IMG/VR virus record: IMGVR_UViG_3300016476_000983
Coordinates: 1-50,872 of that record
DNA length: 50,872 bases
Reading direction: 5' to 3' (one strand)
DNA from: a virus
Lineage: Duplodnaviria > Caudoviricetes
A model generated the notes under the pieces. The model had not been told where the DNA came from and did not search any database. It saw nothing but the letters and a program-made list of their open reading frames with translations. Every line of letters starts with the position of its first letter. Position 1 is the first letter of the stretch. A program made the position numbers and the translations under genes. Shown in pieces: positions 104-48,360 of this stretch.

Positions 104-610
104 ATGCCAAGACCAAGGCGGCGTAATGCACCGGAAGCCAACTACTTCCTTCTCAAATCACATCTTCCAGCACCCTCAATTGCCGATGAGATACCTATTC
201 CCCAGAGAATCGCAGGGAATCAGCAGAAGAAAGCACTCTGGGATTTGATCATCCATGATATGGACAAACGCGGTTGTCTGTCTCCATCATATGCTCCCAT
301 CATCAGTGAGATGGTTGAGGTGATGGACATGATGCACAAGTGTCGGGAGTCACTCGACAAGCAAGGAATGACAATCGACATCATTGACGGTGAAGGGAAC
401 TACCTCGGGACTAAGCCGAATCCCTTTGTGCAGATCCTTGTCACCCAGCAGCGGACATTCCTCAAGATTTGTGAGAAGCTGGGAATGACTCCGCGGGATA
501 TCACATTCCTGACTGCACCTGAACCAGCAGATACTTCTTCCCCAGAACCAATCGACGTGGAGTTTTCCAGGGTTGTCTACTTCCGCAATGCAAGAAAGAA
601 CCTGACATGA
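104..610 (+). CDS. terS: Terminase small subunit, P27 family
   Basis: C-terminal KPNPFV...LGMTPRD pattern typical of P27 TerS; basic N-terminus MPRPRRR from ATG 104 (ORF open from 8). Confidence 0.8.
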   Translation: MPRPRRRNAPEANYFLLKSHLPAPSIADEIPIPQRIAGNQQKKALWDLIIHDMDKRGCLSPSYAPIISEMVEVMDMMHKCRESLDKQGMTIDIIDGEGNYLGTKPNPFVQILVTQQRTFLKICEKLGMTPRDITFLTAPEPADTSSPEPIDVEFSRVVYFRNARKNLT

Positions 611-840
611 ACCTCAAAGAACATGAAGCCGTTGAACGTGCTCGTAAACTTCTGGCGGAAAGCATTCGATTCCGCACAACAATCACGGAGACCATCAAAC
701 AGGAGGTCTGCCGATCATTGTCAGGAGGAGCAAACCTGAACTACGTTCATGTCAGGGACAAAGAGTACAAGCTGCCGTATCGAATGCACACGCTGAGAAC
801 CTCAAACCTGAACAAGTTGCTATCCTCAGACGACTGGTAA
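607..840 (+). CDS. Hypothetical protein
   Basis: ATGA overlap with terS stop, 77 aa, followed by terminator. Confidence 0.6.
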   Translation: MNLKEHEAVERARKLLAESIRFRTTITETIKQEVCRSLSGGANLNYVHVRDKEYKLPYRMHTLRTSNLNKLLSSDDW

Positions 841-846
841 CAAATG

Positions 847-883
847 AAGAACCCCGGATGATGAGTCCGGGGTTCTTTCGTTT
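847..883. terminator. Intrinsic terminator between convergent genes
   Basis: 12-bp stem AAGAACCCCGGA/TCCGGGGTTCTT followed by T-rich run. Confidence 0.75.
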
Positions 884-1033
884 AGTGCTTCTGGGGAAGA
901 GAATCAACGAACCTTCGAGACTCTTCGTATTCCACAGCCAATTGTGCCTGCAGTTCCTGATCAGCCCACAAGCGTACTGTCTGCGGTATTTGAGCCACAA
1001 ACACAGAAGTGACGATGACAGCCAGTACCAGTC

Positions 1034-1381
1034 TCACCGCTTTCCTCCATCGTATGGTACGGCATGTCCGGCTTCGATCATCCGCACGTTGACGTTACCT
1101 TTGACGGTAATCACCGTACACAGCCGTCTACCGTACTTGTCTTTTCCGTGAGTGCGAATGGACAAACCCTGCTCCTTCATAGCAGCAGTCAGGAAAGCCG
1201 TTGCAGCATCGGCAGCAACCTTGTCCGTACTATGGGTCTCCGGAGCGTTGATACCCATCAGCCGGAACGTGTCCCGCCAAAAGGTGTTGTTTCCCATGTC
1301 GATGTTCAGTTCAAGTGTGTCACCATCGATGACACGGATAACTTCAACATGGAAGTACACAAATGTCATATTCTTCTTCAC
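1034..1381 (-). CDS. Thermonuclease (SNase-like) family nuclease
   Basis: Motifs VIDGDT, RLMGINAPE, DKYGR, NxxMIxxGHA. Confidence 0.9.
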   Translation of the reverse strand: MKKNMTFVYFHVEVIRVIDGDTLELNIDMGNNTFWRDTFRLMGINAPETHSTDKVAADAATAFLTAAMKEQGLSIRTHGKDKYGRRLCTVITVKGNVNVRMIEAGHAVPYDGGKR

Positions 1382-1596
1382 GTCTTTTCCTCCAATGGAC
1401 CAAGATATTCAACAAGATCGTGCGGTAATTTAATGCCGAACGTTGACCACGAACCGTCATCCGTCCAATTTGTTGACGCTCCTGAACTGCGGTTTCCGAC
1501 CCACGGACACAAAATTCGTTGATCGTCTCGCCTATACACTTCTGCAACACCACCTCCGCGTTCTTGCCAGCGTCCGGGCTTCATTTCAACACTCAC
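1378..1596 (-). CDS. Hypothetical protein
   Basis: 4-bp overlaps with both neighbours in a coupled operon. Confidence 0.6.
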   Translation of the reverse strand: MSVEMKPGRWQERGGGVAEVYRRDDQRILCPWVGNRSSGASTNWTDDGSWSTFGIKLPHDLVEYLGPLEEKT

Positions 1597-1853
1597 GCTT
1601 TCACCCTGACCTTTCGTGGACGACCAGCAGGTTTAGTAGCCAACGCTGGATTGTTGAAGTATCGGCAGCAGATTTCCACAATGGCTGCTGAACGTGTAAG
1701 CCCGGTCTCCTTACCGAACTCCTCAAGTACCTTCCAGAACTCCTGTGAGGCACTGACCCCGTAAACCCTAGAGGGGAATTGGTTCCGGGTGGTCTTCTGG
1801 CCAGTCTTCTTCCCAGGGTTGCTGTCTGTACTCGATTTCGCTGGTAATCCCAT
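1593..1853 (-). CDS. Possible ribbon-helix-helix DNA-binding protein
   Basis: VYGVSAS-QEFWKVLEEFGKETG-LTRSAAIVEIC strand-helix-helix pattern; GGAG upstream of ATG 1853; start uncertain. Confidence 0.55.
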   Translation of the reverse strand: MGLPAKSSTDSNPGKKTGQKTTRNQFPSRVYGVSASQEFWKVLEEFGKETGLTRSAAIVEICCRYFNNPALATKPAGRPRKVRVKA

Positions 1854-2064
1854 ATTCCTGCTCCAGAATGATTTGAGCGTAGTGAATGATCTTCTGAACG
1901 TCTTCAGCCCCATTCTTCCGTTTGTACCTGAACAGGTACTTCAGAATGCTGAACTGAGCAGGACTCAGGTTCAACTTGTATGCCAGTTGGATAGGCTGAA
2001 AACCATCCGGCATATCCTTGTAGTGAGACCCACCAACCTGTTGCTGACTGACTTTTTTGGACAT
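1768..2064 (-). CDS. DUF3310 family (T7 gp1.7 nucleotide kinase-like) protein
   Basis: QVGGSHYK...KYLFRYKRKNGAEDVQK pattern. Confidence 0.8.
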   Translation of the reverse strand: MSKKVSQQQVGGSHYKDMPDGFQPIQLAYKLNLSPAQFSILKYLFRYKRKNGAEDVQKIIHYAQIILEQEYGITSEIEYRQQPWEEDWPEDHPEPIPL

Positions 2065-2065
2065 G

Positions 2066-3374: not shown

Positions 3375-3758
3375 TCAGTTGCAGACAGACTCCAATATTC
3401 TCATCAGGTTACTGATTGTGCTGAACACATCAGAGTTCTGAAACCTGATTACTGCCACTCCCATACGGTTGAGTCTTTTGGTTCTAAGCCGATCATTGCG
3501 GCGAACATCTGCCCGCCGATGGACCTTCCCGTCGATTTCGACTGCAAGCTGCAGAGTCTCACAGTAGAAGTCCGGGATGTACCCGTGTACAACGACTTGC
3601 GGTTTGAACTTGTGCGTCCAGTTCCGCTGCTCCTTTTTGAGCCGAAGCCAAAAGCACTGCTCCGCTTTGGTCATGTTGTTCCGTAGGAGTAACGCATACT
3701 CCTCTGTACTCACAGTCCTTACCCGGTTACGCGGCGTCTTCCTTCTTGCTTTCTTCAT
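3375..3758 (-). CDS. DUF559 family endonuclease-like protein
   Basis: LRNNMTKAE...YIPDFYC...AVEIDGKVH...DRLRT...VIRF pattern. Confidence 0.85.
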   Translation of the reverse strand: MKKARRKTPRNRVRTVSTEEYALLLRNNMTKAEQCFWLRLKKEQRNWTHKFKPQVVVHGYIPDFYCETLQLAVEIDGKVHRRADVRRNDRLRTKRLNRMGVAVIRFQNSDVFSTISNLMRILESVCN

Positions 3759-3798
3759 TTTCTTCCCCAGAATATACTGAAGGGCAGAGGGTTAAACC

Positions 3799-3827: not shown

Positions 3828-3834
3828 CAGACCT

Positions 3835-4248: not shown

Positions 4249-5324
4249 AACAACTTGCACTGCTCATCGCACTGTTACTCCCGCTTGCCTCAAACGCTGA
4301 AAGCCGTCGACTGTACGTTGACATCCCGAGTGAGAACGGGACAACGACTACAGGTAAAGGCACTGCATTCTGCATTGGAGTGACCGACACTGGCAACAGC
4401 TTGTGGGCTACTGCCCGTCACAACTTCGACGATAGCACAAACGCCGTCGTTCTCAACAAAGAAGGGCACGCTTATCCGGTGCTTCGAGACTCGATTCGCA
4501 AACATCCTGATCCATACACAGATGTTGCCATTTTCGAGTCCACAATCCCCGTAAAAGGGCACTGGTTGCTGGCTGACAGCGAACCCGGTCAGCTCGCAAT
4601 TGTGCCCGGTTACGGTCCTGAGTACCACGGTCGCACTGCTGTGGCCTTTGCTGGTCGCATACTGGACTCCAATTTCATGATGGGTGAAAACTCGTACCAT
4701 GCAATCACAGGTGATTCAGGAGCACCACTTGTTGTTGACGGAGACTATGTGGTTGGTGTTCTGTCAGGACACGAAAGCCCTGAGTACAAAACGTCTCACC
4801 GTGCTGACTACCAACACCTCAATCTGAAGACTGTGTACGTCGAAGCCAAACATGTAAAGTACCTGCTGGATCAGCATTATCAATATCAGCAGCGGTGTAC
4901 TCCGCAGGGCTGCTACATCTATGGAGCACCAACAGTTGTCCAACCTCGTATGGGAATAACCGTTCCGGTTGGTCCGCCCCGAGTAGTCGGGGTCACTCAA
5001 CCTCAACCAATCTATTCTCCTCCCAGAAATGAGCAGCGGCCACAACCGCTGTACCCCCAGCCAAAGGAGCAGCCTGCCCCAACTGCTCCAGACAATACAG
5101 TCCTTCAGAAACTGGTATCTGAATGGATGGAAAAGAACGCAGACAAACTTCGTGGTCCTGCTGGTAAAGACGGTAGAGACGGAAAGGACGGAAGCAATGA
5201 AGTAGCACAAACACAGCTTCCCTTGCAGGTTATTCTTGCAAGGGACGGCAAGATCATTCAAGAGAAGATCATTCCGCCCGGTAAGCCTTTGATCCTTGAT
5301 GTGAGTGCTTTTGAGGGAAAGTAG
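4245..5324 (+). CDS. Secreted trypsin-like serine protease with Pro-rich linker and short collagen-like repeat
   Basis: Signal peptide MKQLALLIALLLPLASNA; triad motifs TARH, DVAI, GDSGAP; GPAGKDGRDGKDG. Confidence 0.85.
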   Translation: MKQLALLIALLLPLASNAESRRLYVDIPSENGTTTTGKGTAFCIGVTDTGNSLWATARHNFDDSTNAVVLNKEGHAYPVLRDSIRKHPDPYTDVAIFESTIPVKGHWLLADSEPGQLAIVPGYGPEYHGRTAVAFAGRILDSNFMMGENSYHAITGDSGAPLVVDGDYVVGVLSGHESPEYKTSHRADYQHLNLKTVYVEAKHVKYLLDQHYQYQQRCTPQGCYIYGAPTVVQPRMGITVPVGPPRVVGVTQPQPIYSPPRNEQRPQPLYPQPKEQPAPTAPDNTVLQKLVSEWMEKNADKLRGPAGKDGRDGKDGSNEVAQTQLPLQVILARDGKIIQEKIIPPGKPLILDVSAFEGK

Positions 5325-5949: not shown

Positions 5950-6244
5950 AGGTGAGGACATGCGGATCACGTCAGCCGGTGACGTTCATTACTACCATCC
6001 ACCTACACCCGCACCGCAACCAGCACCTCAAAAGTCTTCAGTCCTTCCGATGCTGCTTACGGCTGGCTTAACCGCTGCTGGACTTGCTCCAGTGGCTGGT
6101 GTCGCCGGATATCTTACCAACCAATTTCTCTCCCAGAAACAATCTGAGGGGCAAGGGGTTGCGATTCCTCCAAAGATCATTAACAATACCAATACCGAAT
6201 TGCTGGATATTCGGATTTTGGATGAGGACGACCTGCAGCCCTGA
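5828..6244 (+). CDS. Membrane protein
   Basis: One hydrophobic segment (VLPMLLTAGLTAAGLAPVAGVAGYL) after a Pro-rich linker. Confidence 0.65.
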   Translation: MSLDRLFNTVMTEHVQDKLEMNRNHLDAYRRAGLGMGQASEGEDMRITSAGDVHYYHPPTPAPQPAPQKSSVLPMLLTAGLTAAGLAPVAGVAGYLTNQFLSQKQSEGQGVAIPPKIINNTNTELLDIRILDEDDLQP

Positions 6245-9133: not shown

Positions 9134-10272
9134 TGGCAACACAGACCGTCGAATTCGGTGCCCCGGCAAATCAAACAGTAACCGCACGGCTATTCGCTCC
9201 GGCGTCAGACACCGTTGTTGCCACTGCAACTGCAACCGCACGGACAAACGCAACAGGCGTTTATACCGCTGCGTACACTGATCTTGCACCGGGACTGTAT
9301 CGACTGATCGGCACCAATGCTGACGGCACGCTGCTTTGTCAATGGTGGGTACGGACGCTGTCGGCAACTGGCACATATCCGGCGACCGAAACTCCGGATG
9401 CGGATTCACTGACGCGGGACCGCATGGCAACGCTGGACGACGTTTTGGTTGCCGCAAACAATAACCAGCGAATGGTGCAGGTTAATGGAAATGGGCATGT
9501 TGCTGCATCAATACACAACGCAGAACCCGATTCCATTCCAGCCGGAGCATTGACAGATGCTGCTATTGTGGAAATCCAATCCGGCCTTGCCTTGCAGTCT
9601 ACATTGCTTCTTGTTGCTGGGTACACAGACACTGAGATTGCGGCGATAAAAGTCGTTACAGACAAGTTGAACACAGGACTTGTCGCCGATGGTGCAGTAT
9701 TCCAGTTTACAGCCAACATGCTTGAACTCGCCCCTGCTGGTGGCGGAGGTGGCGATGGAAGCGGTGACGCGACTGAAGCCAATCAACAACTGATTTTGGA
9801 TCAGCTTGACGTGATTCAGGCAAAAACCGACCTGATTGGTACGTCTCAAGCTTTGCTTGCAGGTGCTGTGCTGACACCTGGCACCATCACTTCCTTCCCA
9901 GAAATACTAACGATTGGCGACTCCTACACAGTTGTCAATGGTCGAGCAATTCAGATACCAATTATCGACAGCAACGGAAACCCCATATCCGAAGCCGGTA
10001 CATTGTTGTTCGCTGATGCTGATGTGTCGTTCACTATTAAACGTGCATCTGACACCGAATCATCTCGAATACTCACATGCAATGCGTCATTCGTTGACCC
10101 GCCCGGAACAGGTACTGGGGAAGGGCCGTATGCCCTCATTGAGATTCCTGCTGAAGAGACAGTCAAGGGTCTTATGAAATATCAGTACAGTGGCATCCTC
10201 AAATTCACATGGCCGGGTACAGCCGATGAAGTCATCTCTTTCGAGACGGGCACGATCACGTTCGACAACTAA
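9133..10272 (+). CDS. Putative virion structural/fibre protein
   Basis: Thr/Ala-rich beta domains with helical middle and poly-Gly linker. Confidence 0.55.
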   Translation: MATQTVEFGAPANQTVTARLFAPASDTVVATATATARTNATGVYTAAYTDLAPGLYRLIGTNADGTLLCQWWVRTLSATGTYPATETPDADSLTRDRMATLDDVLVAANNNQRMVQVNGNGHVAASIHNAEPDSIPAGALTDAAIVEIQSGLALQSTLLLVAGYTDTEIAAIKVVTDKLNTGLVADGAVFQFTANMLELAPAGGGGGDGSGDATEANQQLILDQLDVIQAKTDLIGTSQALLAGAVLTPGTITSFPEILTIGDSYTVVNGRAIQIPIIDSNGNPISEAGTLLFADADVSFTIKRASDTESSRILTCNASFVDPPGTGTGEGPYALIEIPAEETVKGLMKYQYSGILKFTWPGTADEVISFETGTITFDN

Positions 10273-16407: not shown

Positions 16408-16518
16408 CCTGTGTCCTCTCGCAATGATGGACGGCAGCGGTGAAGCCAAAAGCCGCCGTTGCCGTCCACGTTGCAAACTCTTCTTCCTCCCAGAAACATT
16501 CCGTGAAGGATTTGAAAT

Positions 16519-17719: not shown

Positions 17720-18114
17720 CCAACAAGTACAATCGCCGTGCTCGACCAAACCTCCGGCACCTCTGCGAATTCTGGGTGCCGTCTGCTGAACCGGATGCTT
17801 CTGGTGAACTGAAGCAGGAATTCATCCTGCATTACCGATCTTCCTTTTCGATGGAAGTCCCTCTGCGTCCGCAAGAGATTGGTGATGCAGGGCGAGTGAT
17901 TACAGAGCAGACATTCGTCCTGATTGGGCAATGGTGCAAGCCCGCCAGTCAGATATCAACCAGCATGTTCTGCGTTATACCTTCTCTCCAGAAAGTCTAC
18001 GCGGTACAAGGGCAGGCAACAGATCCATTCGGAGACCGTCGCAAAGTCCATATCCGGATCATCGACAACGTTTCTCAGCCGACCACTATCCAGTTACTCC
18101 CGACGATGTACTGA
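17716..18114 (+). CDS. Head closure (stopper) protein
   Basis: LRH...DASGE pattern; synteny. Confidence 0.6.
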   Translation: MTNKYNRRARPNLRHLCEFWVPSAEPDASGELKQEFILHYRSSFSMEVPLRPQEIGDAGRVITEQTFVLIGQWCKPASQISTSMFCVIPSLQKVYAVQGQATDPFGDRRKVHIRIIDNVSQPTTIQLLPTMY

Positions 18115-19752: not shown

Positions 19753-19797
19753 GCCGGTAGCATTCTTCACTCCAGAAAGTTTTAAGGACGACACCCC

Positions 19798-38591: not shown

Positions 38592-39364
38592 GTGACAAAA
38601 TCGGTCTACTCGACCATCTCGAAATCAGCTACCAAACAAACGCCAGAGACTGCACTACCGACTGTCTGTGGTGCGGCTCTGACAGCAAACTCTCAATCAG
38701 CAGAGAGGACGGCAACGTCTTTCAATGCTGGTCATGTAAGGAACGTGGCAATGGTCTGTCTCTGATGAGGAAGTACTACTCTCTTCTCCCAGAACTTACC
38801 CTGCAGCAAGCCAAAGAGTTCGTCAGCCTGAAACCCGGTATTGTTCCGGCGACTCTTCGTGATGAAGGCGTTCGCTGGGACAACGGCAATTTCTGGATTC
38901 CTGTAAGGAACGCCGAAGGCAACATCATCGCACTGCATAAGTACGATACAACCACCAATATCATCTACAGCAGCCCTAAACCATTCTCGTGTTCGATCCT
39001 CGGGCTGCACAGGTTCAAGCCCGACTGCACGGAAGTGTGGGTGGCTGAAGGGCACGCTGACTACTTCGTGCTTCGTCATCAGCTTAACCGTATTCCCAAT
39101 CCTCCAGAAATGCTGGGGACTTGCGGCAGTGGCTTCAGCGGTTCATACCTGCATCTGTTGAGCGATAAGCACGTTGTGCTACTGTTCGACAATGACGATG
39201 CAGGAAGAACCGGTGTGCAGTCTGTTGCACGCCGCATTAAGTCTTCGGGTAGTACCGTACAGTCTCTGAAGTACTTCGACTGGTCTTCCGTGACTGTTCC
39301 CCAGCATTCAGAACTCCCATCGGGTTTCGATCTTCGAGACTTGGTCAACGCATTGAGGGCATGA
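38588..39364 (+). CDS. DNA primase (Zn finger + TOPRIM)
   Basis: CLWC...CWSC zinc site; VAEG..D; FDNDDAG; DLRD. Confidence 0.85.
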   Translation: MSDKIGLLDHLEISYQTNARDCTTDCLWCGSDSKLSISREDGNVFQCWSCKERGNGLSLMRKYYSLLPELTLQQAKEFVSLKPGIVPATLRDEGVRWDNGNFWIPVRNAEGNIIALHKYDTTTNIIYSSPKPFSCSILGLHRFKPDCTEVWVAEGHADYFVLRHQLNRIPNPPEMLGTCGSGFSGSYLHLLSDKHVVLLFDNDDAGRTGVQSVARRIKSSGSTVQSLKYFDWSSVTVPQHSELPSGFDLRDLVNALRA

Positions 39365-39927
39365 TGAAGGTCTTAATTGCTTGTGAGTTCAGCGGTGTAG
39401 TACGTGACGCATTCCGCCGTCGTGGACACGATGCGTGGTCGTGTGACATACTTCCCGCCGAACCTTCTCCCTTCCAGAAATATCACAAGCAATGCAGGCT
39501 GGAGGAACTGAAGTACAGGCACTGGGATCTTGCAATCTGTCACCCTCCTTGCACTCATCTTTCCGTATCAGGGGCACGATGGTTCAAAGACAAGCAACAG
39601 GAGCAACAGGAAGCCATACAGTTCTTCATGCGATGCGTTAAGTTTGGTGCAGACAGGGTATGCGTTGAAAACCCTGTCTGCATCATGTCTCGCCTGTATC
39701 GCAAACCAGACCAGATCATACAACCTTGGATGTTTGGTCACGGTGAAACAAAGAAGACCTGCCTGTGGCTGAAGAACCTTCCTTTGCTACAACCAACAAA
39801 CATCGTTGAAGGACGTGAGCAGCGAATCTGGAAAATGCCGCCGTCTGCAGACCGCGGTAAACTCCGAAGCATAACTTACACGGGCATTGCTGAAGCAATG
39901 GCTGATCAATGGGGAAACTTGAAATGA
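39361..39927 (+). CDS. DNA cytosine-C5 methyltransferase (short phage type)
   Basis: VLIACEFSG, HPPC, ENP, KKTCLW motifs. Confidence 0.85.
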   Translation: MMKVLIACEFSGVVRDAFRRRGHDAWSCDILPAEPSPFQKYHKQCRLEELKYRHWDLAICHPPCTHLSVSGARWFKDKQQEQQEAIQFFMRCVKFGADRVCVENPVCIMSRLYRKPDQIIQPWMFGHGETKKTCLWLKNLPLLQPTNIVEGREQRIWKMPPSADRGKLRSITYTGIAEAMADQWGNLK

Positions 39928-41213
39928 ACATCATCGAACTGATCCGTGATCACTTGGTTGAAGTCAAGATGGACGAAGTCGTGTCCATCCAGCCTCAACC
40001 CTGTGACTCCTTCCATAAGCTGATGACGATCTACCGTCAGGACATGAGCGTCACTAAGTCTATGGAAGACTGCCTGGCTCTGTGCATGGCTACACACATT
40101 GCCGTAGTTCTCGACGGCGACCCAATCTGGATGTACCTCGTGGGTGCTCCATCATCCGGCAAGAGTACAATCTGCGATTTGCTCTCATCGGATGAACTGC
40201 ATACCCGTGCATTGAGCAAGTTCACAGGGCTTGTCTCAGGCAGCCGACAAGGCACTCACCTGATTCCATTGCTGCAGGGTAAGTGCGTCGTTATCAAAGA
40301 CGGCACACTGTTGTTGGAATCAACCCCTCAGCAGCTTGCCAATGTCTACGGTGAACTCCGTGACATTTTCGACGGCAGCCTCAATGCTGAGTACCGTAAC
40401 GGTGTCTCTGCTTCCTTCCAGAACATCTCGTTCGGCATGATCATCGGAATCACGGAACGAATCTACTCGCTGAACATGTCAGCCCTTGGCGAACGCTTCA
40501 TTCACTGCCGACTGGAAACCAGTCGTGAGGTTGAAATGAAGCGTAACCGCAGTGCCATTCGTGGTATCTTTGAGCGTAGCAGCCGGACCAACTACGAGGG
40601 TAATGAAGCGGGCGACTCTCGATCATTTCCTAAACAGCGTGCCTACACCGCTGGGTTCCTCAGCCACATGCACACAGTCATCAGAACTGGCGATTTGCTG
40701 AGGCCAGAATACACCGAAGAGGATGAAGCACTGATCCAGGCTTGCGGTGACGTAATTGCCTGCAGCCGTGCTCAAGCACCTCGCAGCAAGGAACATGGCA
40801 GCAACGAGCTGTTGTATGATGCTTTGCCCGAAGCATCCACCCGCGTCTGTAAGCAGCTTAGCCGACTGGCCTATTGCCTTTGCTACATCTTCAACGTCAG
40901 CCACATTACTCCCGAAATCAGACGGCTGATTGTCAAAGTGACATTGGACACGTCCTACAGTCGCCAGCACCGGATCATCCGCCATGTTGCTCTTTCCCAG
41001 AAAGGACTGGGGCGGCAAAGCATTGCGGCATTGTCCGGTATCCCGCTGGAGACTATCAGCCGTCGAATCGATGACCTGCTCAGTCTCAAAATACTGACTG
41101 GTGACGACACCAGTACCCGTCCTGTCCGTGGTCGTGCTGTCTCTGTACTCCGGTGCTCTGACTGGGTACAGGAAGCATTCCGAAAGGTTGAAGAATATGC
41201 CCCAGAAACATAA
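39924..41213 (+). CDS. P-loop ATPase/helicase-like protein with C-terminal HTH
   Basis: Walker A GAPSSGKST, VVIKD, GERF; C-terminal helix-turn-helix-like segment. Confidence 0.7.
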   Translation: MNIIELIRDHLVEVKMDEVVSIQPQPCDSFHKLMTIYRQDMSVTKSMEDCLALCMATHIAVVLDGDPIWMYLVGAPSSGKSTICDLLSSDELHTRALSKFTGLVSGSRQGTHLIPLLQGKCVVIKDGTLLLESTPQQLANVYGELRDIFDGSLNAEYRNGVSASFQNISFGMIIGITERIYSLNMSALGERFIHCRLETSREVEMKRNRSAIRGIFERSSRTNYEGNEAGDSRSFPKQRAYTAGFLSHMHTVIRTGDLLRPEYTEEDEALIQACGDVIACSRAQAPRSKEHGSNELLYDALPEASTRVCKQLSRLAYCLCYIFNVSHITPEIRRLIVKVTLDTSYSRQHRIIRHVALSQKGLGRQSIAALSGIPLETISRRIDDLLSLKILTGDDTSTRPVRGRAVSVLRCSDWVQEAFRKVEEYAPET

Positions 41214-41775: not shown

Positions 41776-41868
41776 TACGATACTTTCTTCATCCCAGAAA
41801 TCCGAACGCGGTATAAGGCAAGCCAGAGGGCTTCCTGACCATGTTCATCATCCCATAGGAGAGAACCT

Positions 41869-42519
41869 GTGCCAAACCAAGGCTACCCAGAAGATGGTCC
41901 TGCATTCCCCGGCAGGGAGATTGTGGAACCTGTCACAAGCAAGTCCCCAGTGCGGTACGTTGTGCATGACTACGGCAACCAGCCCACAGTCCACGTCGAC
42001 CAGACTACCGCTGACCGTGTTGCAGCAACCCGCAAGATCGAAGTCACCGAAGTGTCACCATCAGTCGCTGACGGTATCCTAAAAAATGCGGCTGGGAGTA
42101 CCACTGAATTCACACAGCAACCTTCCCGAGAGGCCGCTAAACAAGCTCGTAACTTCACGATTGACACGGGCGGGACAAAATTCGTCATTGGTGCGGGTCT
42201 GAGCAGTCTGCAATCCTGGATCACCGAATGGGCTATCGGTAAAGGCTGGCTGGTCCCCGGTCAACCTCGGGAACTGCTCCATCAACTCATGCTGGTAGTC
42301 AGCGAACTGTCTGAGGCGTGTGAAGCCCACCGTGAGGGCAACCCGAAGTGTGACCGTCCAAACATGGGCGAGTTCTCCCATGTTGAGGAGGAACTGGCAG
42401 ACGCTGTGATCCGTATCCTGCAGATTGCAGGGGAGCACAATTTCCGCGTGGTTGAAGCAATCATCGCTAAGATGGAGTTCAATGAGACCCGTCCTGTAAA
42501 GCACGGCAAGACTTGCTGA
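41869..42519 (+). CDS. MazG-like nucleotide pyrophosphohydrolase (C-terminal domain)
   Basis: SELSEACEA, EEELAD, KMEFN..R...HGK. Confidence 0.8.
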   Translation: MPNQGYPEDGPAFPGREIVEPVTSKSPVRYVVHDYGNQPTVHVDQTTADRVAATRKIEVTEVSPSVADGILKNAAGSTTEFTQQPSREAAKQARNFTIDTGGTKFVIGAGLSSLQSWITEWAIGKGWLVPGQPRELLHQLMLVVSELSEACEAHREGNPKCDRPNMGEFSHVEEELADAVIRILQIAGEHNFRVVEAIIAKMEFNETRPVKHGKTC

Positions 42520-42544
42520 TTCTTCTCTCCAGAAGTCTCAAACG

Positions 42545-42589: not shown

Positions 42590-42590
42590 G

Positions 42591-43280
42591 TTACTTGCCG
42601 AATTCCTTCCGTCTGCGGTCACGTTCAGCAATGAACTCTTCCGCATACTGGAATGAATCCTTGGCTGAATACGAGCCGTTGTAAATATAAACCTCCCGTG
42701 CCAACTTCTCAACTTCCGTCTCAGGCTGCTCAGCACTGCCAACATCCAGGCTTTCCAGCCTTCGACGCTCCACTGCAAGCGAGTGCTGCAGGTTGTGAAC
42801 TTCCTGCCGAAGATTGTCCCTTTCGGTAATCAGTCTGGTTCTTTCTTGTTCCGCTGCCTGAATGACGACAGAATTGGTTTTCTCTTGTGCTTTAAGTTTC
42901 CCCTCCAAAGCGGCAAGCTGCTTCTTCAGACCGTCAACGTGCTCCTGCATTCTTTGCAGTCGATTGTGCAACTCCATGTTTTCTTCCACAAGTTTTTTTA
43001 TCTGCTGATTGGCCTCAGCCAGTTCATTTTCAAGTTCTTCCTCCGATGTAAGCCCGTCTTCCGTTTCCTCCTCCTCCCACTCACCCGCAGCGTCGTTTGT
43101 TATTGGGTTTGTAACGGGTCTACTCACTGGTCTTCTACAGTTGGAGTTAGTGCCGACAACCATGCCGCATACTGTATCACCTTTTTTCACTGTGTGCCAG
43201 ACCTGAGCACTTGCAACGTAAATCTGATCACCTTCTTCAAGTCGATCACCAGGCCGCAGCTTAACTGAATAACCGCTCAT
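42591..43280 (-). CDS. Coiled-coil protein
   Basis: GGGAG RBS before ATG 43280; long heptad region. Confidence 0.7.
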   Translation of the reverse strand: MSGYSVKLRPGDRLEEGDQIYVASAQVWHTVKKGDTVCGMVVGTNSNCRRPVSRPVTNPITNDAAGEWEEEETEDGLTSEEELENELAEANQQIKKLVEENMELHNRLQRMQEHVDGLKKQLAALEGKLKAQEKTNSVVIQAAEQERTRLITERDNLRQEVHNLQHSLAVERRRLESLDVGSAEQPETEVEKLAREVYIYNGSYSAKDSFQYAEEFIAERDRRRKEFGK

Positions 43281-43294
43281 GTATTCTCTCCCAG

Positions 43295-43320
43295 AAAAAC
43301 CCCGGCCACTCTCCGGGGTT
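43295..43320 (-). terminator. Intrinsic terminator
   Basis: AACCCCGG/CCGGGGTT stem then T-run on minus strand. Confidence 0.6.
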
Positions 43321-43337
43321 AAGACCAAAAAATCCGG

Positions 43338-44039: not shown

Positions 44040-44245
44040 CGCTTCAACCCTTTCAATTCAATTCCAACTCCGCCGCTGGCCAGACCGTACACCCGGTGAA
44101 CCATATAGCGGTGTCTACCATTCTCCCAGAAATCCCCTACACGGGGTAGGGGCTGTTCGTTTCCTTCCAGTTCTTCCTTCTCAATCAGAACTACTGTCCG
44201 GTGTGTCGGTGTCTCCGGTCGGGACATAAGCGGTGCTCTTTTCAA
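44036..44245 (-). CDS. Hypothetical protein
   Basis: ATGA overlap with downstream gene; start uncertain. Confidence 0.45.
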   Translation of the reverse strand: MKRAPLMSRPETPTHRTVVLIEKEELEGNEQPLPRVGDFWENGRHRYMVHRVYGLASGGVGIELKGLKR

Positions 44246-44477: not shown

Positions 44478-44510
44478 CGTTGTTCTCCCAGAAAAAATCA
44501 CCGCAGGGGA

Positions 44511-45437
44511 TTACAGGTCAGCCGGGTTTCTGAACCCCAGAAACACCGGAATACGTGGACGGTCGACGCTGCCCATTTCCTGATACTTGAACTTGACAAC
44601 GGCACCCAGATAGTAAGCCTGGTCTTCCCATATCTGTTTTCTCAGTCTGTCGTCAAACCCTGTACCAATCTCAAACTCAATACCATCCCAGCGGCCACCG
44701 CAGCCCCGTACACGCAGCGTTCCGAGTGTACCGCTGCCTACCATACCCTCTTGCTTGTGTGAACGCTCAGTGAGTCCCAGAGCGTTTACCGTGGCCTGAT
44801 TCGTGTTGTGCTGGCGTTCCACGTATCCGATGATTTCAGCCTCACCGTCAGCGAACGGTTTCAGCTTGAGTAACCCACCCTCTTTGACCGTACTCCGGCC
44901 AAACTTGTACATACCACCGGGATTTCTGAGCATGATTCCCTCAAAGCCCTGACTTAGGTATTTCAAATTGAGGGCTTCGAGTTGGCCCACGTCATTCACG
45001 GTAACGTGATGAACGTGACGAACGCGGTACAAGTGTTGCCGCTGACGACACCATTCTTTAACACCACCCAGACGCATTTGATACGATACCGAATCGACCT
45101 GATCAAACACCGCGAACAAAAAATCCGGCGTCCCCCGTTTGCTCATGACGGCAGACGACACCGCGTTAAACGGTGTCGCTGCCCACTCATGCAACTCGCC
45201 GTGGAAAGATTCACCAGCGTAAGCCCGAGTCAATATCTCACCGTCAAAGTCAGGGAGGTTCATGCTTTCAAGCCTGTTCCGGATATGATCATTAGGAATA
45301 GGCTTAAGTGACCGGGTGAGGGCTTTACCCTCACGGATCACACAGCGTATTCCGTCTAGTTTGGGGCTGACCAGTACAGGGAATTTCACGTCATCCAGAT
45401 TCTTCAATTCAGCGGCGAGCATAGGGCGGAACGTCAT
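44511..45437 (-). CDS. ATP-dependent DNA ligase
   Basis: Motif I KLDGIR, FDGEI, VFD, EGIMLR, LKLK, GTGF, RIPVF. Confidence 0.95.
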   Translation of the reverse strand: MTFRPMLAAELKNLDDVKFPVLVSPKLDGIRCVIREGKALTRSLKPIPNDHIRNRLESMNLPDFDGEILTRAYAGESFHGELHEWAATPFNAVSSAVMSKRGTPDFLFAVFDQVDSVSYQMRLGGVKEWCRQRQHLYRVRHVHHVTVNDVGQLEALNLKYLSQGFEGIMLRNPGGMYKFGRSTVKEGGLLKLKPFADGEAEIIGYVERQHNTNQATVNALGLTERSHKQEGMVGSGTLGTLRVRGCGGRWDGIEFEIGTGFDDRLRKQIWEDQAYYLGAVVKFKYQEMGSVDRPRIPVFLGFRNPADL

Positions 45438-45494
45438 CGGAATTGTCCTTGAAAACTTTTGGGAAGAAAATCACCAACGGGTATACCACACAAA

Positions 45495-45965
45495 TCAGAT
45501 TTGACGGTGACGCAACTGGGGAAGCCCCGGAATAGCTCGCTGCAGGTTGCTGACGACTTCAAAGATCATATCCATCCCGCAGCCCTGCACGTATAACCCG
45601 GAGTGTTTGGCCATACGGTAGCCTAACACCACGTGCAGCTTATACGTGATGGAAACCAGTTGGTTATTTGCAATCACGAAGAAGTCAATACTGCGGGCCA
45701 TTCCGCTACGGGACACGTCACGAATCAGACCGTAGACAACACACTCAGCCGGTGTACCGTTCTCGTGATCAGCCGGACGGCTTGCCGATTGAACCAGTTC
45801 GGTGAGGTCACGGACAAGCTGCTGACGGTAGGTCGCTGCCCCAGCCTTAGCCGTCAGTCGTTCCATATCTGTTTTCTCAGCGTACTGCTGAACCAAAATC
45901 GAATCTGCAGCAACTTCCACGATTTCACCGGACGGAACGAAGCGAAAGTAGACTGTTTTAGACAT
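45495..45965 (-). CDS. Hypothetical phage protein
   Basis: GGGAG RBS; VSRSGM.R.I and GCGMDM motifs. Confidence 0.75.
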   Translation of the reverse strand: MSKTVYFRFVPSGEIVEVAADSILVQQYAEKTDMERLTAKAGAATYRQQLVRDLTELVQSASRPADHENGTPAECVVYGLIRDVSRSGMARSIDFFVIANNQLVSITYKLHVVLGYRMAKHSGLYVQGCGMDMIFEVVSNLQRAIPGLPQLRHRQI

Positions 45966-46060
45966 AGCACGTTACTCCCAAAAAATCATCAACGGGGTAT
46001 GCAGGAAACACACGATACTAGCCCCGTGACACGGGACTAGCCTCACACGTTCGCCGCAAA

Positions 46061-46360
46061 CTAACTCAAACGCTCAGCAATATCACCCCAGCACCCAACG
46101 CGAAACCGCCCTGACTTTGAACTGAACAGAATAGTCAGTTCGTAACTGTCACCAGTGTTCAGGTACTGCCACCCGTCCTGCCCACAATCGTCCCACCATT
46201 CAACGCCGAACGTGCCTAAGTCAGGGAAACGCTTTTCACGTTCCCCCAGAACTTCCGCAGCAGTGTGGGACGGGTGGCAACTGGTATAGCGGCGTTTGTG
46301 GGCATAGAGTTCGCGGCACCACTCAACAGCTTTTTCAGATACTTTCCCGTGACTCACCAA
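46061..46360 (-). CDS. Hypothetical phage protein (5' end possibly frameshifted)
   Basis: YLNTGDSY..TI motif; no clear RBS at TTG start. Confidence 0.55.
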   Translation of the reverse strand: MVSHGKVSEKAVEWCRELYAHKRRYTSCHPSHTAAEVLGEREKRFPDLGTFGVEWWDDCGQDGWQYLNTGDSYELTILFSSKSGRFRVGCWGDIAERLS

Positions 46361-46441
46361 CTTTCATCAGGACAACACCGCTTGAACTTGCCATAGTTTC
46401 TCTCTCTCCCAGAAATCACAAACGGGATACCGTCGAACTGA

Positions 46442-46828
46442 CTAGACGTAGCAGAAAGTACCGCACTCAGACGCAAATACAGTACTCTCACCCTGCCCGA
46501 TAGCTGCCCGTGCAAGGTCAGTGCCAAACTTACCCCACTGTCCGTCACGAAAACCGGCACCGTGCCCGTTACGGGACAGAAAAAAATCGTGCCCGGCTTG
46601 TTTGTATTCAGACTCACCCCACGGTTCTTGCATCATGCAGTCTCTAACTGTTGGGATAGTCAGAAAATCAGCACACTGAGACACAATTGCCAACCACGAA
46701 CGGTCGGTAAAGTGGCCAGCGTTAAACCGTTTGTTCAGTGGTTCGCCGTCTTCATCGGTTGAAGCCCATAAAGCTGTTTCGATATAGGACTCGACAAACA
46801 CGTTCAGCAATTCTTCAATACGTGACAT
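46442..46828 (-). CDS. Hypothetical phage protein
   Basis: GGGAG RBS; YIETALW and GHDFFLSRNGHGAGF motifs. Confidence 0.75.
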   Translation of the reverse strand: MSRIEELLNVFVESYIETALWASTDEDGEPLNKRFNAGHFTDRSWLAIVSQCADFLTIPTVRDCMMQEPWGESEYKQAGHDFFLSRNGHGAGFRDGQWGKFGTDLARAAIGQGESTVFASECGTFCYV

Positions 46829-46865
46829 TGAATTAACTCCCAGAAAATTTGAACGGGACACCTAA

Positions 46866-47486
46866 TCAGTTTAATCGTGTTTCAGAATCCGAAATTTCAC
46901 ACTCACTGACGACACGATACCAACCCTTATTCGTGACTTCCTGCCAGTCCGTGGCAAGTGGACGGGAACCAAAAGCCGTGTAATACGGGGACGCATACAG
47001 CTTACCGCAACGGCTACGGTGAACCACAACACTACCGGTACACTGGTTAGCCGCGATAACGTTTGCAAAGTCCCAGTGGCTGGGAAAACTGACTAAGTCA
47101 CCGTATTCCCGCCCGTCAAGTTGTGGACCGATAGCAAGTGAGTCAACGCGGTGAAGAGTGTCGTGAATCATACCGTTGTGACAGTAGGTCCAGTCACCAG
47201 AATCAGTATCGAAGAAGTGGCAATTGGCAACTGAAGGAAACCCCTGAGTAGCTGCCCGCATATGGACACAAACACGGCTGACTGAGCGTGACAGTATTCG
47301 CAACGTTTTTACGAAGTTGCCAAAACCCATTGACTGAAACCGCCATAAAATAGCGGTATCGCCGTCTACCCACTGATCAGGCAACCCAATAGCTGAACAA
47401 CCGTCATGATTACTGGGGTAGTCTTTTTCAAGCTGATCAATTAATGGGTTAAGCATTGAAACCGGAACGGTGTACATAGTACACAT
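46866..47486 (-). CDS. Class II (Ntn) glutamine amidotransferase-like protein
   Basis: N-terminal Cys2, N.DG, HMRAAT.G, NCHFF, HNG, DS motifs. Confidence 0.8.
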   Translation of the reverse strand: MCTMYTVPVSMLNPLIDQLEKDYPSNHDGCSAIGLPDQWVDGDTAILWRFQSMGFGNFVKTLRILSRSVSRVCVHMRAATQGFPSVANCHFFDTDSGDWTYCHNGMIHDTLHRVDSLAIGPQLDGREYGDLVSFPSHWDFANVIAANQCTGSVVVHRSRCGKLYASPYYTAFGSRPLATDWQEVTNKGWYRVVSECEISDSETRLN

Positions 47487-47508
47487 AGCACGTTACTCCC
47501 AAAAAAAA

Positions 47509-47772
47509 TCAGGCGGATACTTTCAGGCCACAAAGAAGCGAACCAACGTACCACGTGTAAACAGTACGGTGGCCAACACGTACCACGGTCACGCGATTGT
47601 TTGGCTGGTCGACACCGACAACTTCATACCGTGCCCCGGACGAATACACAAACACGCTACCGATTGTGATACGTGTGAGGCATTCTTCGTTACTGCTGAC
47701 GGGCCAATAAGTAACGCCAAAATCGTCAGTGACAGGCGGTTGAATTGTGACAGGACCGGAGATTACGGACAT
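47509..47772 (-). CDS. Hypothetical protein
   Basis: GGGAG RBS, first gene after promoter. Confidence 0.6.
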   Translation of the reverse strand: MSVISGPVTIQPPVTDDFGVTYWPVSSNEECLTRITIGSVFVYSSGARYEVVGVDQPNNRVTVVRVGHRTVYTWYVGSLLCGLKVSA

Positions 47773-47813
47773 TGAATCAACTCCCAAAAAATTCGTGTGG
47801 GTGGTACGGCGAA

Positions 47814-47841
47814 AGTGTAGCACACTTATCGACCGTGTCAA
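47814..47841 (-). promoter_or_regulatory. Sigma70-type early promoter
   Basis: TTGACA-16 nt-TACACT with extended TG and A-rich upstream tract. Confidence 0.7.
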
Positions 47842-48360
47842 CTGGAATGCTGAATTTTTTGTTGCATTATTTTTACTCCCAAAAAATCTGCAGGGGTACT
47901 AGCTGATCAGCAGCAAGCCCCCACACTGATCAGGCACCGGTTCACGGGCTAAACCCCTGATCAGTTTGCCCTGATTGTGGATAGTCAACAAAACCTGAAT
48001 TGTAGGGTGGCTGCTGCCCGTACCCTATATGTTTCCGCAGTTTGCGTAGTTTGGGCGGATTGTGCCGAACTTGCACAATTGGCGGGTTTGCGTAGGTTGT
48101 AGGGGATAGGCTGAATGCTCCAATTGCGGGGAATAGGGGGAATAGGCTGGACTAGGCTAAATTCGGTATCGGGAACGCTGGTTTCCCAGCGTTTGAGTTA
48201 TCCACAGGGAATACTGCTAAAATCACATAGGATAGCCTATAACGCGTTCAAATCGTTCCGGCTAGTATAATACCGGCTTTCGTTTCATCGCGTTATAAGC
48301 GATTCTGTGCGATTTTGCACCCCTAGAGGAAAACCCTAGGTTTTATTTCAGGACAGGACA

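Follow-up and report, generated by a model that had tools for sequence, protein, structure and literature searches.

The window, i.e. the whole stretch of DNA analysed here, is the complete record (50,872 bp) of an uncultivated freshwater phage, with a rightward gene block that includes TerS-like, TerL, portal, major head, DNA polymerase and primase genes and a leftward block towards the right end. Throughout both blocks lies a motif, whose consensus in the window is W-T-Y7-CCAGAA-A, in total approximately 14 nt including an eight-place two-letter tract. The generic form found family-wide is a pyrimidine run plus CAGAA, or more precisely about eight pyrimidines, then CAGAA(A) and a weak G-rich box another 12 to 15 nt on. 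The motif contains the partial inverted repeat TTTCT..AGAAA and is without palindrome.

An initial annotation had described this motif as strand-polarised, which is confirmed by our counts. With a PWM derived from the motif sites themselves and a score of at least 16 for the main count, the whole window holds 32 copies on the plus and 2 on the minus strand. The word CCCAGAA alone occurs 29 times on the plus and 3 times on the minus strand, compared to an expectation of 7.0 for both strands summed and a highest count of 14 among 100 dinucleotide shuffles. All 38 plus-strand positions listed earlier carry CCAGAA at the expected offset; 34 of them score at least 14 and 36 at least 10, with 41199 and 46833 as weak members, and the four CCCAAAAA variants were all found. 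Among the listed minus-strand positions, 889, 650, 18683 and 45457 were recovered (PWM 14.3 to 20.1 in this check), while 20348 turned out to be weak (6.8). The earlier list had omitted a plus-strand copy at 14512 (PWM 15.4) and weak copies at 1863, 8729, 42986 and 50573.

Plus-strand copies up to the end of the rightward block (PWM score last):

532..549, +, CCAGAA at 542, within the TerS-like gene, 18.3
3757..3774, +, complement acts as RBS for the leftward DUF559 gene (ATG 14 nt past TTCTGG, 127 aa), 18.4
5013..5030, +, in a plus-strand gene, 20.5
6123..6140, +, in a plus-strand gene, 22.1
9888..9905, +, orthologous in relatives G001 and G008, 19.5
11442..11459, +, within TerL, 19.7
12505..12522, +, within the portal gene, 17.2
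13704..13721, +, within the portal gene, 20.0
14502..14519, +, new compared to the initial annotation, 15.4
16480..16497, +, intergenic, 3' of the major head gene, 22.5
17978..17995, +, motif copy, 19.2
19762..19779, +, intergenic, orthologous in G001, 19.1
20706..20723, +, motif copy, 19.0
23212..23229, +, motif copy, 20.0
24360..24377, +, orthologous in G001, 19.6
26830..26847, +, orthologous in G001, 19.0
28144..28161, +, motif copy, 19.8
29572..29589, +, orthologous in G001, 16.8
30321..30338, +, motif copy, 17.0
31644..31661, +, tail of the ParB/Srx-like gene, orthologous in G001, 20.2
34239..34256, +, intergenic, orthologous in G001, 17.6
36017..36034, +, within the DNA polymerase gene, orthologous in G001, 20.3
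37651..37668, +, end of the polymerase gene, 19.2
38779..38796, +, within the primase gene, orthologous in G001, 18.1
39464..39481, +, motif copy, 21.0
40408..40425, +, motif copy, 16.9
40987..41004, +, orthologous in G001, 19.7
41784..41801, +, intergenic, 21.3
42519..42536, +, between the last rightward gene and a bidirectional terminator, orthologous in G001, 19.8

Plus-strand copies in the leftward block and at the right end:

42976..42993, +, weak variant (CCACAA) in a leftward gene, 14.6
43281..43298, +, complement acts as RBS for leftward gene 42591-43328 (ATG, 229 aa), 18.3
44116..44133, +, intergenic, 19.2
44478..44495, +, complement acts as RBS for leftward gene 44181-44501 (GTG, 98 aa), 15.3
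44527..44544, +, 3' end of the leftward ligase gene, 14.3
45964..45985, +, GTTACTCCCAAAAAA variant, complement acts as RBS for leftward gene 45495-45965
46236..46253, +, within a leftward gene, 14.1
46399..46416, +, motif copy, 20.6
47485..47506, +, GTTACTCCCAAAAAA variant, complement acts as RBS for leftward gene 46866-47486
47869..47886, +, TTACTCCCAAAAAA variant, final copy of the series, 16.1
50563..50580, +, weak, 300 nt before the right end, 12.1

Selection at the DNA level

As null model we used synonymous codon shuffling (300 runs over 59 genes from rough in-house calling, 90% coding). At PWM scores of at least 16, shuffled genomes retained on average 9.8 plus-strand copies (maximum 13) and 2.0 minus-strand copies, so the observed plus-strand count is far above the null; the approximately ten surviving copies are mostly the intergenic ones, which were held fixed. 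The looser generic pattern gave 37 plus-strand and 4 minus-strand copies versus 15.5 and 4.9 under the shuffle. Furthermore, in a strain of 89.6% identity only 3 of 126 motif bases differ, compared to 894 of 8539 elsewhere (binomial P 6e-4), i.e. the motif diverged approximately four times less than its flanks. Excess over the null and low divergence thus bear out the proposed selection on the DNA. One copy is a special case, since 12505..12522 covers the conserved peptide FSHYFHPE and is therefore partly protein-constrained.

The polarity is independent of transcription, as had been claimed: the leftward gene blocks of eight genomes hold 44 plus-strand and 7 minus-strand copies. That the copies stay almost exclusively on one strand in either gene orientation indicates a signal at the level of the DNA. 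The motif is hence a cis-acting signal of the DNA itself, neither of protein nor of mRNA, and selection holds it on one strand of the linear genome throughout a freshwater siphophage family.

It is very improbable that the motif acts on RNA or translation, signals transcription in the manner of a stoperator or results from codon usage or protein repeats. In favour of such roles, the complement is a strong Shine-Dalgarno-like word that serves, as initially proposed, as RBS of at least five leftward genes, and some plus-strand copies stand immediately 5' of rightward gene starts. However, the enrichment is not confined to the RBSs of minus-strand genes, because 28 of 37 plus-strand copies belong to the rightward block, many of them deep in genes, where the copies within plus-strand genes occupy all three codon frames as the initial annotation had stated. 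In addition, coding copies are lost on synonymous shuffling, the antisense ORFs behind copies are short and irregular, and a hairpin or terminator was not found consistently 3' of the copies. Based on the codon-shuffle excess, the use of all three frames and the strand kept where transcription flips, we rejected chance as well as explanations at the RNA level, by RBSs only or by stoperator-like signals. Stoperators and start-associated sequences of mycobacteriophages also occur as many genome-wide copies of an asymmetric 13-nt word, some within translation start regions, but they follow transcription or only precede starts, whereas the window motif stays on its strand irrespective of gene direction, a difference already noted in the initial annotation.

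When the DNA is considered single-stranded, pairing of the pyrimidine run with the 32 nt that follow it reaches -5.14 kcal/mol, compared to -4.02 for random and -3.68 for upstream sequence (n=252, P 5e-10). This better downstream pairing is a weak sign of single-strand reading.

Relatives and candidate reader proteins

The motif is common to a large IMG/VR phage family, often at orthologous positions; 13 of 18 sites in G001 are orthologous with the window according to our own mapping from alignment blocks. Across 30 family loci (each 9 kb or longer, 528 kb together) we counted 291 plus-strand and 31 minus-strand copies, and in outgroup loci 0/0, 2/2 and 2/2. Whole genomes gave 37/4, 23/2, 41/3, 37/4, 42/7, 19/3 and 53/6. 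As candidate host we have a single MAG with the title Caulobacter sp., weakly linked through two contigs of a family member contained in it. The motif lacks enrichment in this MAG (66 versus 65 for the reversed control), and the 8-mer pattern YCTCAGAA yielded 64 versus 54, 11 of these 64 being located in the phage contig.

Several products of the window were considered as readers of the motif:

3375..3758, -, DUF559/Vsr-like endonuclease
30521..31777, +, candidate reader, ParB/Srx-fold protein with GQHR motif and Lys/Ala/Pro-rich tail
32316..33293, +, candidate reader, PD-(D/E)XK nuclease, conserved in relatives, adjoining an AAA_24 ATPase (33330-34241)
38588..39364, +, candidate reader, primase with N-terminal CxxC...CxxC zinc ribbon and TOPRIM part, present in G001, G002 and G008

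The PD-(D/E)XK nuclease and AAA_24 look like a recombination module of the phage's own. Moreover, an ATP-dependent ligase is encoded in the window.

The initial annotation, whose interpretation is partly supported overall, had suggested a motor, a Chi/KOPS-like system or a ParB-like protein as possible reader. A Chi-like or fork-linked signal agrees with the geometry, but nick sites, which that annotation does not mention, are similarly likely. A family-conserved ParB/Srx-fold protein (GQHR motif, basic tail) exists in 8 of 8 genomes checked. Its predicted fold, an atlas lead, is only weakly supported, the best Foldseek matches being ParB, sulfiredoxin, KorB and Noc, all with E of at least 0.027. 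A classical parS is palindromic, has no polarity and occurs in few copies. Despite the partial inverted repeat, approximately 40 copies are far too many for such sites, and the missing palindrome, the composition-only 5' half and the strict polarity do not match them either. Nor do we know of a terminase or an ejection step for which polar words inside the genome are read. Hence, it appears improbable that the copies bind or load this protein or a different DNA-binding protein of the phage, or that they serve as a polar signal in packaging or ejection.

Spacing, genome ends and possible functions

Neighbouring copies in the window are separated by 1390 nt on average (median 1.2 kb) and are more evenly spaced than random (CV 0.50 to 0.62 versus 0.95, P about 1e-4 to 1e-3). 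The same holds for three of six relatives, with a CV of 0.49 to 0.71 and P of at most 0.014 for the window, G001, G012 and G013. In five near-complete genomes, plus-strand copies are mildly enriched rightwards (26 and 36 in deciles 8 and 9, mean 21).

The minus-strand copies of the window are:

648..665, -, near the left terminus, 17.0
887..904, -, near the left terminus, 20.0
18682..18699, -, motif copy, 14.7
45455..45472, -, weak copy (CCCAAAAG), 13.9

Among the five near-complete genomes, 9 of 24 minus-strand copies fall in the leftmost tenth (P 3e-4); the left-terminal ones lie within 0.25 to 2.5 kb of the terminus. Since seven independent contigs begin 30 to 410 nt upstream of one common point of the TerS-like gene, this left end is a real terminus.

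The even spacing on the scale of Okazaki fragments would fit hard-wired start sites of lagging-strand primers, a rather unlikely reading in which the zinc-ribbon/TOPRIM primase would recognise CAGAA(A) on the lagging template and make an all-purine primer from the pyrimidine run. This would require unidirectional forks, arising by rolling circle or at an origin close to the left end, which keep the same strand as lagging template throughout; a short leftward arm could account for the minus-strand copies left of about 2.5 kb. The strict 3' element with a composition-only 5' tract of fixed length resembles the architecture of primase sites, the zinc-ribbon primase and the Walker-A ATPase following it are conserved across the family, and the single strand has hairpin potential. 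T7 gp4-type sites, which are read on single-stranded DNA, share the strict short 3'-side element and the 5' templating tract of restricted composition; they consist of G/T letters then GTC, and T7 primers contain A and C only. However, known primases require just three to five bases, and their sites are neither enriched nor strand-biased, as in T7 with 161 versus 159 in our count. No precedent is known to us, and our literature search for comparable hard-wired priming sites found nothing of this kind. At four-fold sites the plus strand is C-rich in both gene directions (5 of 7 genomes), which by the bacterial rule, weak for phages, would make it the leading-strand template, the opposite of what priming needs. 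Furthermore, no polarity switch was seen near the replication genes.

Somewhat more probable, although still doubtful, is that the motif marks where one strand of the virion DNA is nicked site-specifically, a feature of T5, phiKMV-like phages, tf and Rembedalsseter; a phage nickase would cut these places late in infection and a ligase would seal them after entry. The TACTRTGMC sites of tf lie on the top strand in 14 of 14 cases, irrespective of the convergent gene blocks, with similar positions in relatives (PMC3517423), and our own count gave 14/0; some tf nicks are at gene boundaries or start codons, as are many copies here. In Rembedalsseter, 13 of 13 WACTRTGAC sites share one strand, and the motif is enriched in 60 related phages (PMC11780129). 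According to these reports (PMC3517423, PMC11780129, 10.1101/619015), such motifs are family-specific, restricted to one strand, kept in position among relatives, located within or between genes of either direction and without known function. The window motif is likewise specific to its phage family, conserved in position and not enriched in the candidate host; besides the ligase, the PD-(D/E)XK nuclease and the ParB/Srx-fold protein are conserved candidate nucleases. In contrast, nick-motif phages have 4 to 14 unevenly distributed, fully specified sites with physically proven nicks (same reports), whereas here there are 19 to 53 evenly spaced predicted sites with a two-letter tract; compared to the 13 to 14 sites of tf-like phages, 37 to 53 per genome are three to four times more. 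Nick sites explain neither the left-terminal clustering of minus-strand copies, nor the even spacing (CV 0.54; tf 0.83), nor the hairpin tendency. The DUF559/Vsr-like protein, at first sight the best nickase candidate, was not found in three of four near-complete motif-bearing relatives and was rejected as a required reader, and the ligase was not found in G001, G002 and G008. Contig ends lie within 100 nt of sites in 8 of 86 cases (5.5 expected, P 0.17), but assemblies would hardly reveal nicks.

We tentatively prefer a third explanation, which we consider possible rather than probable, namely that the motif is a polar signal resembling Chi, read by a helicase-nuclease that enters the DNA at its ends. 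We rank it first, nick sites second and priming sites third, close together. The enzyme, a host RecBCD/AddAB-type complex or the phage PD-(D/E)XK nuclease with its ATPase, would enter a free end, track inward, read the motif on the strand ending 3' at the nearer end and be switched from degradation to protection or recombination. The plus-strand copies would face entry at the right end, left free when terminase holds the left one, and the few left-terminal minus-strand copies would face an enzyme coming in at the left. In leftward genes the motif may have been fitted into intergenic spacers, with its complement GGGAG doubling as ribosome-binding site.

Every Chi known to us is short, fully specified and G-rich, and the pyrimidine-rich word of approximately 14 nt with its eight-place two-letter tract is unlike all of them. 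The even spacing, the mildness of the rightward enrichment, the plus-strand copies found also left of minus-strand ones and the lack of enrichment in the weakly linked host MAG likewise speak against a Chi-like signal. Chi-rich phages are described without a recombination module in PMC12315714, whereas the phage studied here apparently has one. Their word is the host's own 8-mer Chi (PMC12315714), while the window motif is longer, partly degenerate and not enriched in the one candidate host. On the other hand, Chi-rich phages of the E. coli LLS class and P. aeruginosa MD8 also have one short word per approximately 1.2 to 1.9 kb, near-exclusively on the top strand with the terminase genes at the left and irrespective of gene direction (PMC12315714). 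The orientation of our plus-strand copies is that of active Chi in lambda, LLS (20 of 23) and MD8 (32 of 32) (PMC12315714). The MD8 copies cluster at the right end (CV 1.39 versus 0.54 here); in our own count they amount to 32/0 with a mean gap of 1247 nt, next to the 1390 nt of the window motif.

A strand-polarised word under selection

The window is a complete virus record, classed as linear (50,872 bases, completeness estimate 97%), with rightward genes from approximately 3.8 to 42.5 kb and leftward genes at 0.7-3.8 kb and 42.6-50.8 kb. It carries no tRNA genes. A megablast search with 20 kb found no cultured close relatives, and the best TerL matches among "phages" are less than 31% identical. 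Most of the small leftward genes as well as the ORFs 7046-8686, 9133-10272 and 49191-50363 had no assigned family after Pfam, PHROG and NCBIfam scans. The main features are:

8-610: Terminase_4 small-subunit-like (TerS-like) gene
2066-2956, leftward: thymidylate-synthase homologue
3375-3758, leftward: DUF559/Vsr-like endonuclease
10190-12175, + strand: TerL
12182-14065, + strand: portal
14932-16407, + strand: major head protein
20576-23182, + strand: long tail gene
35530-37674, + strand: family-A DNA polymerase
38588-39364, + strand: primase
39909-41213: Walker-A ATPase following the primase
42548-42581: bidirectional terminator
44511-45437, leftward: ATP-dependent ligase

The heptamer CCCAGAA occurs 29 times on the + strand and three times on the - strand of the window, where 7.0 copies are expected for both strands combined. 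Alignment of the copies resulted in the motif W-T-Y7-CCAGAA-A plus a weak G-rich box at +13 to +18. With a position weight matrix (PWM) refined on the motif sites, 32 + and 2 - copies were obtained at a cut-off of at least 16, and 37 + and 4 - copies at a cut-off of at least 14. All 38 + strand places named in the initial annotation carry the core, and 34 of them score at least 14. The annotation had also proposed that the motif is selected at the DNA level, and this proposal withstood a synonymous-codon shuffle inside 59 rough gene calls, in which proteins and codon usage are kept and intergenic DNA is unchanged: the shuffled sequences held 9.8 + copies (maximum 13) and 2.0 - copies compared to the observed 32 and 2. 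Hence, approximately 23 coding copies are not a by-product of the encoded proteins. Copies within + strand genes occupy all three frames.

Relatives were drawn from IMG/VR via TerL, the DUF559 protein and a portal alignment (A1), and the portal scan yielded 58 loci; no relatives were found with the polymerase as query. In the closest long relative, G001 (approximately 68% DNA identity), 18 + and 1 - copies reach a PWM score of at least 14, and 13 of these 18 are orthologous in position to window copies according to our own mapping of collinear blast blocks. Sites common to the window and relative G008 are also present. In the more distant relatives the design is retained, but its core is looser. 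The commonest core is CTCAGAA in G008, G011, G013 and G014 and TTCAGAA in G012, and all pyrimidine pairs occur mixed within every genome; the generic word is therefore a pyrimidine run followed by CAGAA. We counted it as at least seven pyrimidines out of eight followed by CAGAA in the 30 portal-scan loci of at least 9 kb (528 kb, outgroups included, shorter loci left out), which gave 291 copies on the portal strand versus 31 on the opposite strand. Three outgroup-like loci with a portal identity of just 25 to 26% showed 0/0, 2/2 and 2/2. Whole-genome counts (+/-) were 37/4 in the window, 23/2 in G001, 41/3 in G008, 37/4 in G011, 42/7 in G012, 19/3 in G013 and 53/6 in G014, while G002 has 9/5 for the generic word and uses the variant TTACTCCCAG instead. 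The codon-shuffle background of the generic word in the window amounts to 15.5 + and 4.9 - copies, approximately ten of the + copies being fixed intergenic ones, so the counts of the relatives include some noise.

The motif is also conserved between close strains. In locus L035 (89.6% identical, 8.66 kb), only 3 of 126 motif bases are changed, compared to 894 of 8539 bases elsewhere (P 6e-4). An exact 14-mer scan of IMG/VR returned at least 119 stretches, with one match in each of the 80 stretches listed. A few low-GC loci among the listed matches have 4 to 6 generic hits on one strand; they share no genes with the window, save for a single weak hit in L128 and another in L162, and their hits were put down to composition. 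The motif provides a practical metagenome marker to recognise and orient members of the family.

Orientation relative to transcription, translation and genome ends

In eight genomes, leftward blocks of at least two genes carry the generic word 44 times on the + and 7 times on the - strand, and rightward blocks carry it 205 and 23 times, respectively; its orientation is therefore independent of the transcription direction. The orientation of mycobacteriophage stoperators follows transcription. The distinction drawn in the initial annotation is borne out by the strand being kept even in leftward blocks, and we rejected the class of stoperators and start-associated sequences, since the motif has neither an orientation with transcription nor a fixed place upstream of starts.

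Upstream of leftward genes, the motif often lies in the pre-start spacer and its complement TTTCTGGGAG represents the ribosome-binding site (RBS), for example:

3767, 43291 and 44488: complement acts as RBS of leftward genes
45972 and 47493: GTTACTCCCAAAAAA variants, complement acts as RBS

The copies are not confined to such positions, as 28 of the 37 are situated in the rightward block, many of them far within genes. Antisense frames behind the complements of copies are short and irregular, and the copies showed no consistent hairpin or terminator. An RNA-level origin, or mere chance, is extremely unlikely.

Seven contigs that are independent of each other (the window, G002, G008, G009, G011, G012 and G014) start 30 to 410 nt upstream of one point at the TerS-like gene, and for six the start offset is within 60 nt. 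This shows the left end to be a genuine terminus. In the window, the TerS-like gene is 9.5 kb away from TerL. As judged from the assemblies, common starts and distant TerS suggest that the genome has fixed ends and that its terminase genes are unusually far apart. G013, which was assembled in permuted form and has a terminal repeat of 127 bp, shows a single motif polarity right round (19/3).

When five near-complete genomes are divided into tenths, the + copies number 24, 16, 19, 22, 15, 19, 16, 26, 36 and 17 from left to right, deciles 8 and 9 with 26 and 36 copies compared to a mean of 21, and the - copies 9, 0, 1, 3, 1, 1, 0, 2, 5 and 2. The leftmost tenth thus holds 9 of the 24 - copies (P 3e-4), all facing inward at the left terminus, and the polarity of the motif is tied to the real genome ends. 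The positions of these - copies are not orthologous between the genomes:

Window: 654, 893
G008: 418, 2458
G011: 243, 1538
G014: 404, 517, 2523

Some of the copies nearest to a terminus, at each end, point 3' toward that terminus. The cumulative skew of the window is without a V shape and reveals neither an origin nor a switch in polarity.

Copies in the window are spaced more regularly than at random (CV 0.50 to 0.62 versus 0.95, P 1e-4 to 1e-3). This evenness reaches significance in the window, G001, G012 and G013 but not in G008, G011 and G014. The pyrimidine run pairs slightly, yet significantly, better with the next 32 nt than with controls, which hints at a motif read on the single strand. 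In five of seven genomes, the + strand has a negative GC skew at four-fold sites, in rightward and leftward genes alike.

Comparison with known polar words and possible readers

The signal and the selection acting on it are shown by the data; all that is said below of its reader is inferred. To our knowledge, strand-exclusive phage words are known in two forms, nick motifs, the function of which is unexplained, and Chi enrichment. In phage tf, the top strand carries 14 of 14 nick-motif sites, also where gene blocks converge, and relatives have them at similar positions (PMC3517423). phiKMV-like phages have four nicks at CGACNNNNNCCTACTCCGG. The 13 nicks of Rembedalsseter fall on a single strand at WACTRTGAC, a word that is also enriched in 60 related phages (PMC11780129). 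With the terminase at the left, 20 of 23 Chi sites of LLS and 32 of 32 of MD8 are top-strand, concentrated toward the right end, and both phages are presented there as having no recombination modules (PMC12315714). Our recounts gave 14/0 for the tf nick motif (CV 0.83, several sites at gene boundaries) and 32/0 for MD8 Chi (mean gap 1247, CV 1.39).

The motif resembles nick motifs and Chi-rich phages in being strand-exclusive. It shares family specificity and positions common to relatives (13 of 18 in G001) with the former, and density and orientation relative to the terminase end with the latter. However, its two-letter tract and even spread set it apart from both. Nick consensi are short and fully specified with 4 to 14 copies, whereas in the motif the pyrimidine tract alone takes up eight places and the copies number 19 to 53, and its overall even spacing is unlike that of MD8 Chi. 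It is a strand-exclusive phage word of unusual density, evenness and degeneracy. The family adds a third such pattern, orthologously conserved across dozens of uncultivated freshwater phages, and would be a good model whichever reader proves right. A literature search returned no paper on the motif word or the phage family, and no relevant work on primase-site bias, polypyrimidine strand-specific phage motifs or nicking enzymes in this respect.

The reading that we tentatively rank first, with two others close behind, is a Chi-like polar signal for an enzyme entering at DNA ends. Both the clustering of - copies at the left end and the top-strand rule are consistent with such an enzyme, and the motif has the active orientation of Chi: it lies on the strand whose 3' end is at the terminus left free while DNA is packaged, the top strand with the terminase at the left. 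In contrast to the LLS class, which is without a recombination module of its own, the window family has a conserved PD-(D/E)XK nuclease with an AAA_24 ATPase, found in all genomes checked. The word may also be a phage-owned Chi-like self mark, read by this nuclease, that would tell phage from host DNA. If the Chi-like reading is true, it would define either a system owned by the phage or the Chi of a host not studied so far.

Like Chi, nick sites of the T5/tf/phiKMV type are favoured by known precedent. However, a nickase acting on double strands predicts neither the left-end - cluster nor the top-strand rule, and contig ends taken as a proxy for nicks (86 ends, 43 contigs) were not enriched near sites. 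Contigs of four runs placed along the window likewise gave no points at which molecules start or stop, as is usual for contigs; one of these runs contains the full 50,872-base record and may be its source. We rate nick sites as only slightly less probable than the Chi-like reading. If true, this would mean 40 nicks per genome under purifying selection. The DUF559/Vsr-like nuclease was an attractive candidate: it belongs to a nicking-enzyme superfamily (PDB relative 3hrl), and the RBS of its own gene bears each lineage's version of the motif. It was found in G002, G006, G008, G009 and G014 but not in the motif-bearing G011, G012 and G013 (92 to 100% complete), and was rejected as a required reader.

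Alternatively, each lagging-strand fragment would begin at a genome-encoded site that a phage primase recognises by a long word. The pyrimidine run would be copied into an all-purine primer, and the fragment spacing would be written in the genome. This is the best fit for the even spacing and the composition-only tract, and forks that start from an origin close to the left end would likewise agree with the left-end - cluster and the top-strand rule. The primase (CxxC...CxxC zinc ribbon at the N-terminus, plus a TOPRIM part), the Walker-A ATPase behind it and the DNA polymerase are conserved in every genome checked. However, the negative skew of the + strand speaks, by the bacterial rule, against this strand as the lagging-strand template, a rule that is weak for phages, and T7 as a control shows its own sites unenriched (161 versus 159 primase words, without bias). 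Altogether, priming ranks slightly below nick sites; if true, Okazaki starts encoded in a genome would be seen here for the first time.

Readers of the ParB type, other binding proteins or a motor appear quite improbable. The ParB-like protein assumed in the initial annotation does exist, namely as a 418-residue ParB/Srx-like protein (30521-31777) that contains a GQHR motif, has a tail rich in Lys, Ala and Pro and is conserved in every genome checked; neither this protein nor any of the other conserved candidates (nuclease/AAA_24, polymerase, primase) could be tied to the motif. The atlas lead for this protein was to ParB/Srx and DGQHR clusters, and Foldseek matched its AlphaFold model (pLDDT 70.5) best to ParB, sulfiredoxin, KorB and Noc, with E values of 0.027 or worse; a PDB-sequence profile search gave no match. 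Its C-terminal tail (residues ~366-400) is histone-H1-like and disordered in the model. parS loading sites of ParB are few and palindromic, of approximately 16 bp, and this class was rejected given ~40 asymmetric copies of the motif.

KOPS are skewed 8-mers of host chromosomes that converge on dif and are read by an FtsK-type translocase. Family scans of the submitted proteins revealed no FtsK-like gene. The single candidate host is G016, a MAG titled Caulobacter sp., which holds two contigs of one family member, C242 and C166 (GC ~0.49 to 0.51). Its contig C224 (GC 0.55) is unrelated and has zero + copies; the bin may be mixed. In this MAG, weakly linked to the phage, the motif, considered as a Chi or a KOPS of the host, is unenriched (66 versus 65 in the control, and 64 versus 54). 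The KOPS class was rejected on this weakly linked host, on the negative FtsK result of these scans and on the missing convergence point in the complete G013 (19/3).

Variable stretches and further repeats

The thymidylate-synthase homologue and the ATP-dependent ligase gave negative tblastn results in G001, G002, G006, G008 and G009 and are, by this comparison, accessory genes in the phage family. In contigs from three other runs, 46849-47811 of the window is swapped for 18 to 19 other letters. Two of these three runs skip 39363-39924, which corresponds exactly to ORF 39361-39927, also missing from G002 and G008, and 46378-46837 is a further variable stretch. Some of the breakpoints in the leftward block adjoin motif copies, which suggests cassette exchange at shared words.

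A second repeat family, ACATAGCACGTTACTCCCAAAAAA, is located at 45960-45985, 47481-47506 and also 47873-47886 of the window, and its complement supplies RBS, spacer and ATG of early-looking leftward genes. In G001 (37273-39760, TerL-forward, record reverse-complemented), copies of this family, each followed by a GAAGGGG box, stand in front of at least five leftward genes, so that the repeat resembles a translation start cassette that the genes have in common.

Three iteron-like GTTTGCGTAGTTTG copies at 48031-48099, the only such repeats in the window, lie inside a 730-nt gap upstream of a leftward promoter-like site (47841-47814), and the + motif series ends just before this gap. The region is a candidate operator or origin.

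In loci L014, L015 and L016, the TerL match spans 2841-2922 nt versus 1890 nt in other loci. The excess of ~950 to 1030 nt in this G002-like clade suggests an inserted element, e.g. an intein or intron. At its contig end (~44.4-44.5 kb), G002 furthermore has approximately 20 one-strand GCCACTGCCATCGCCA-like repeats, probably a repetitive coding region.
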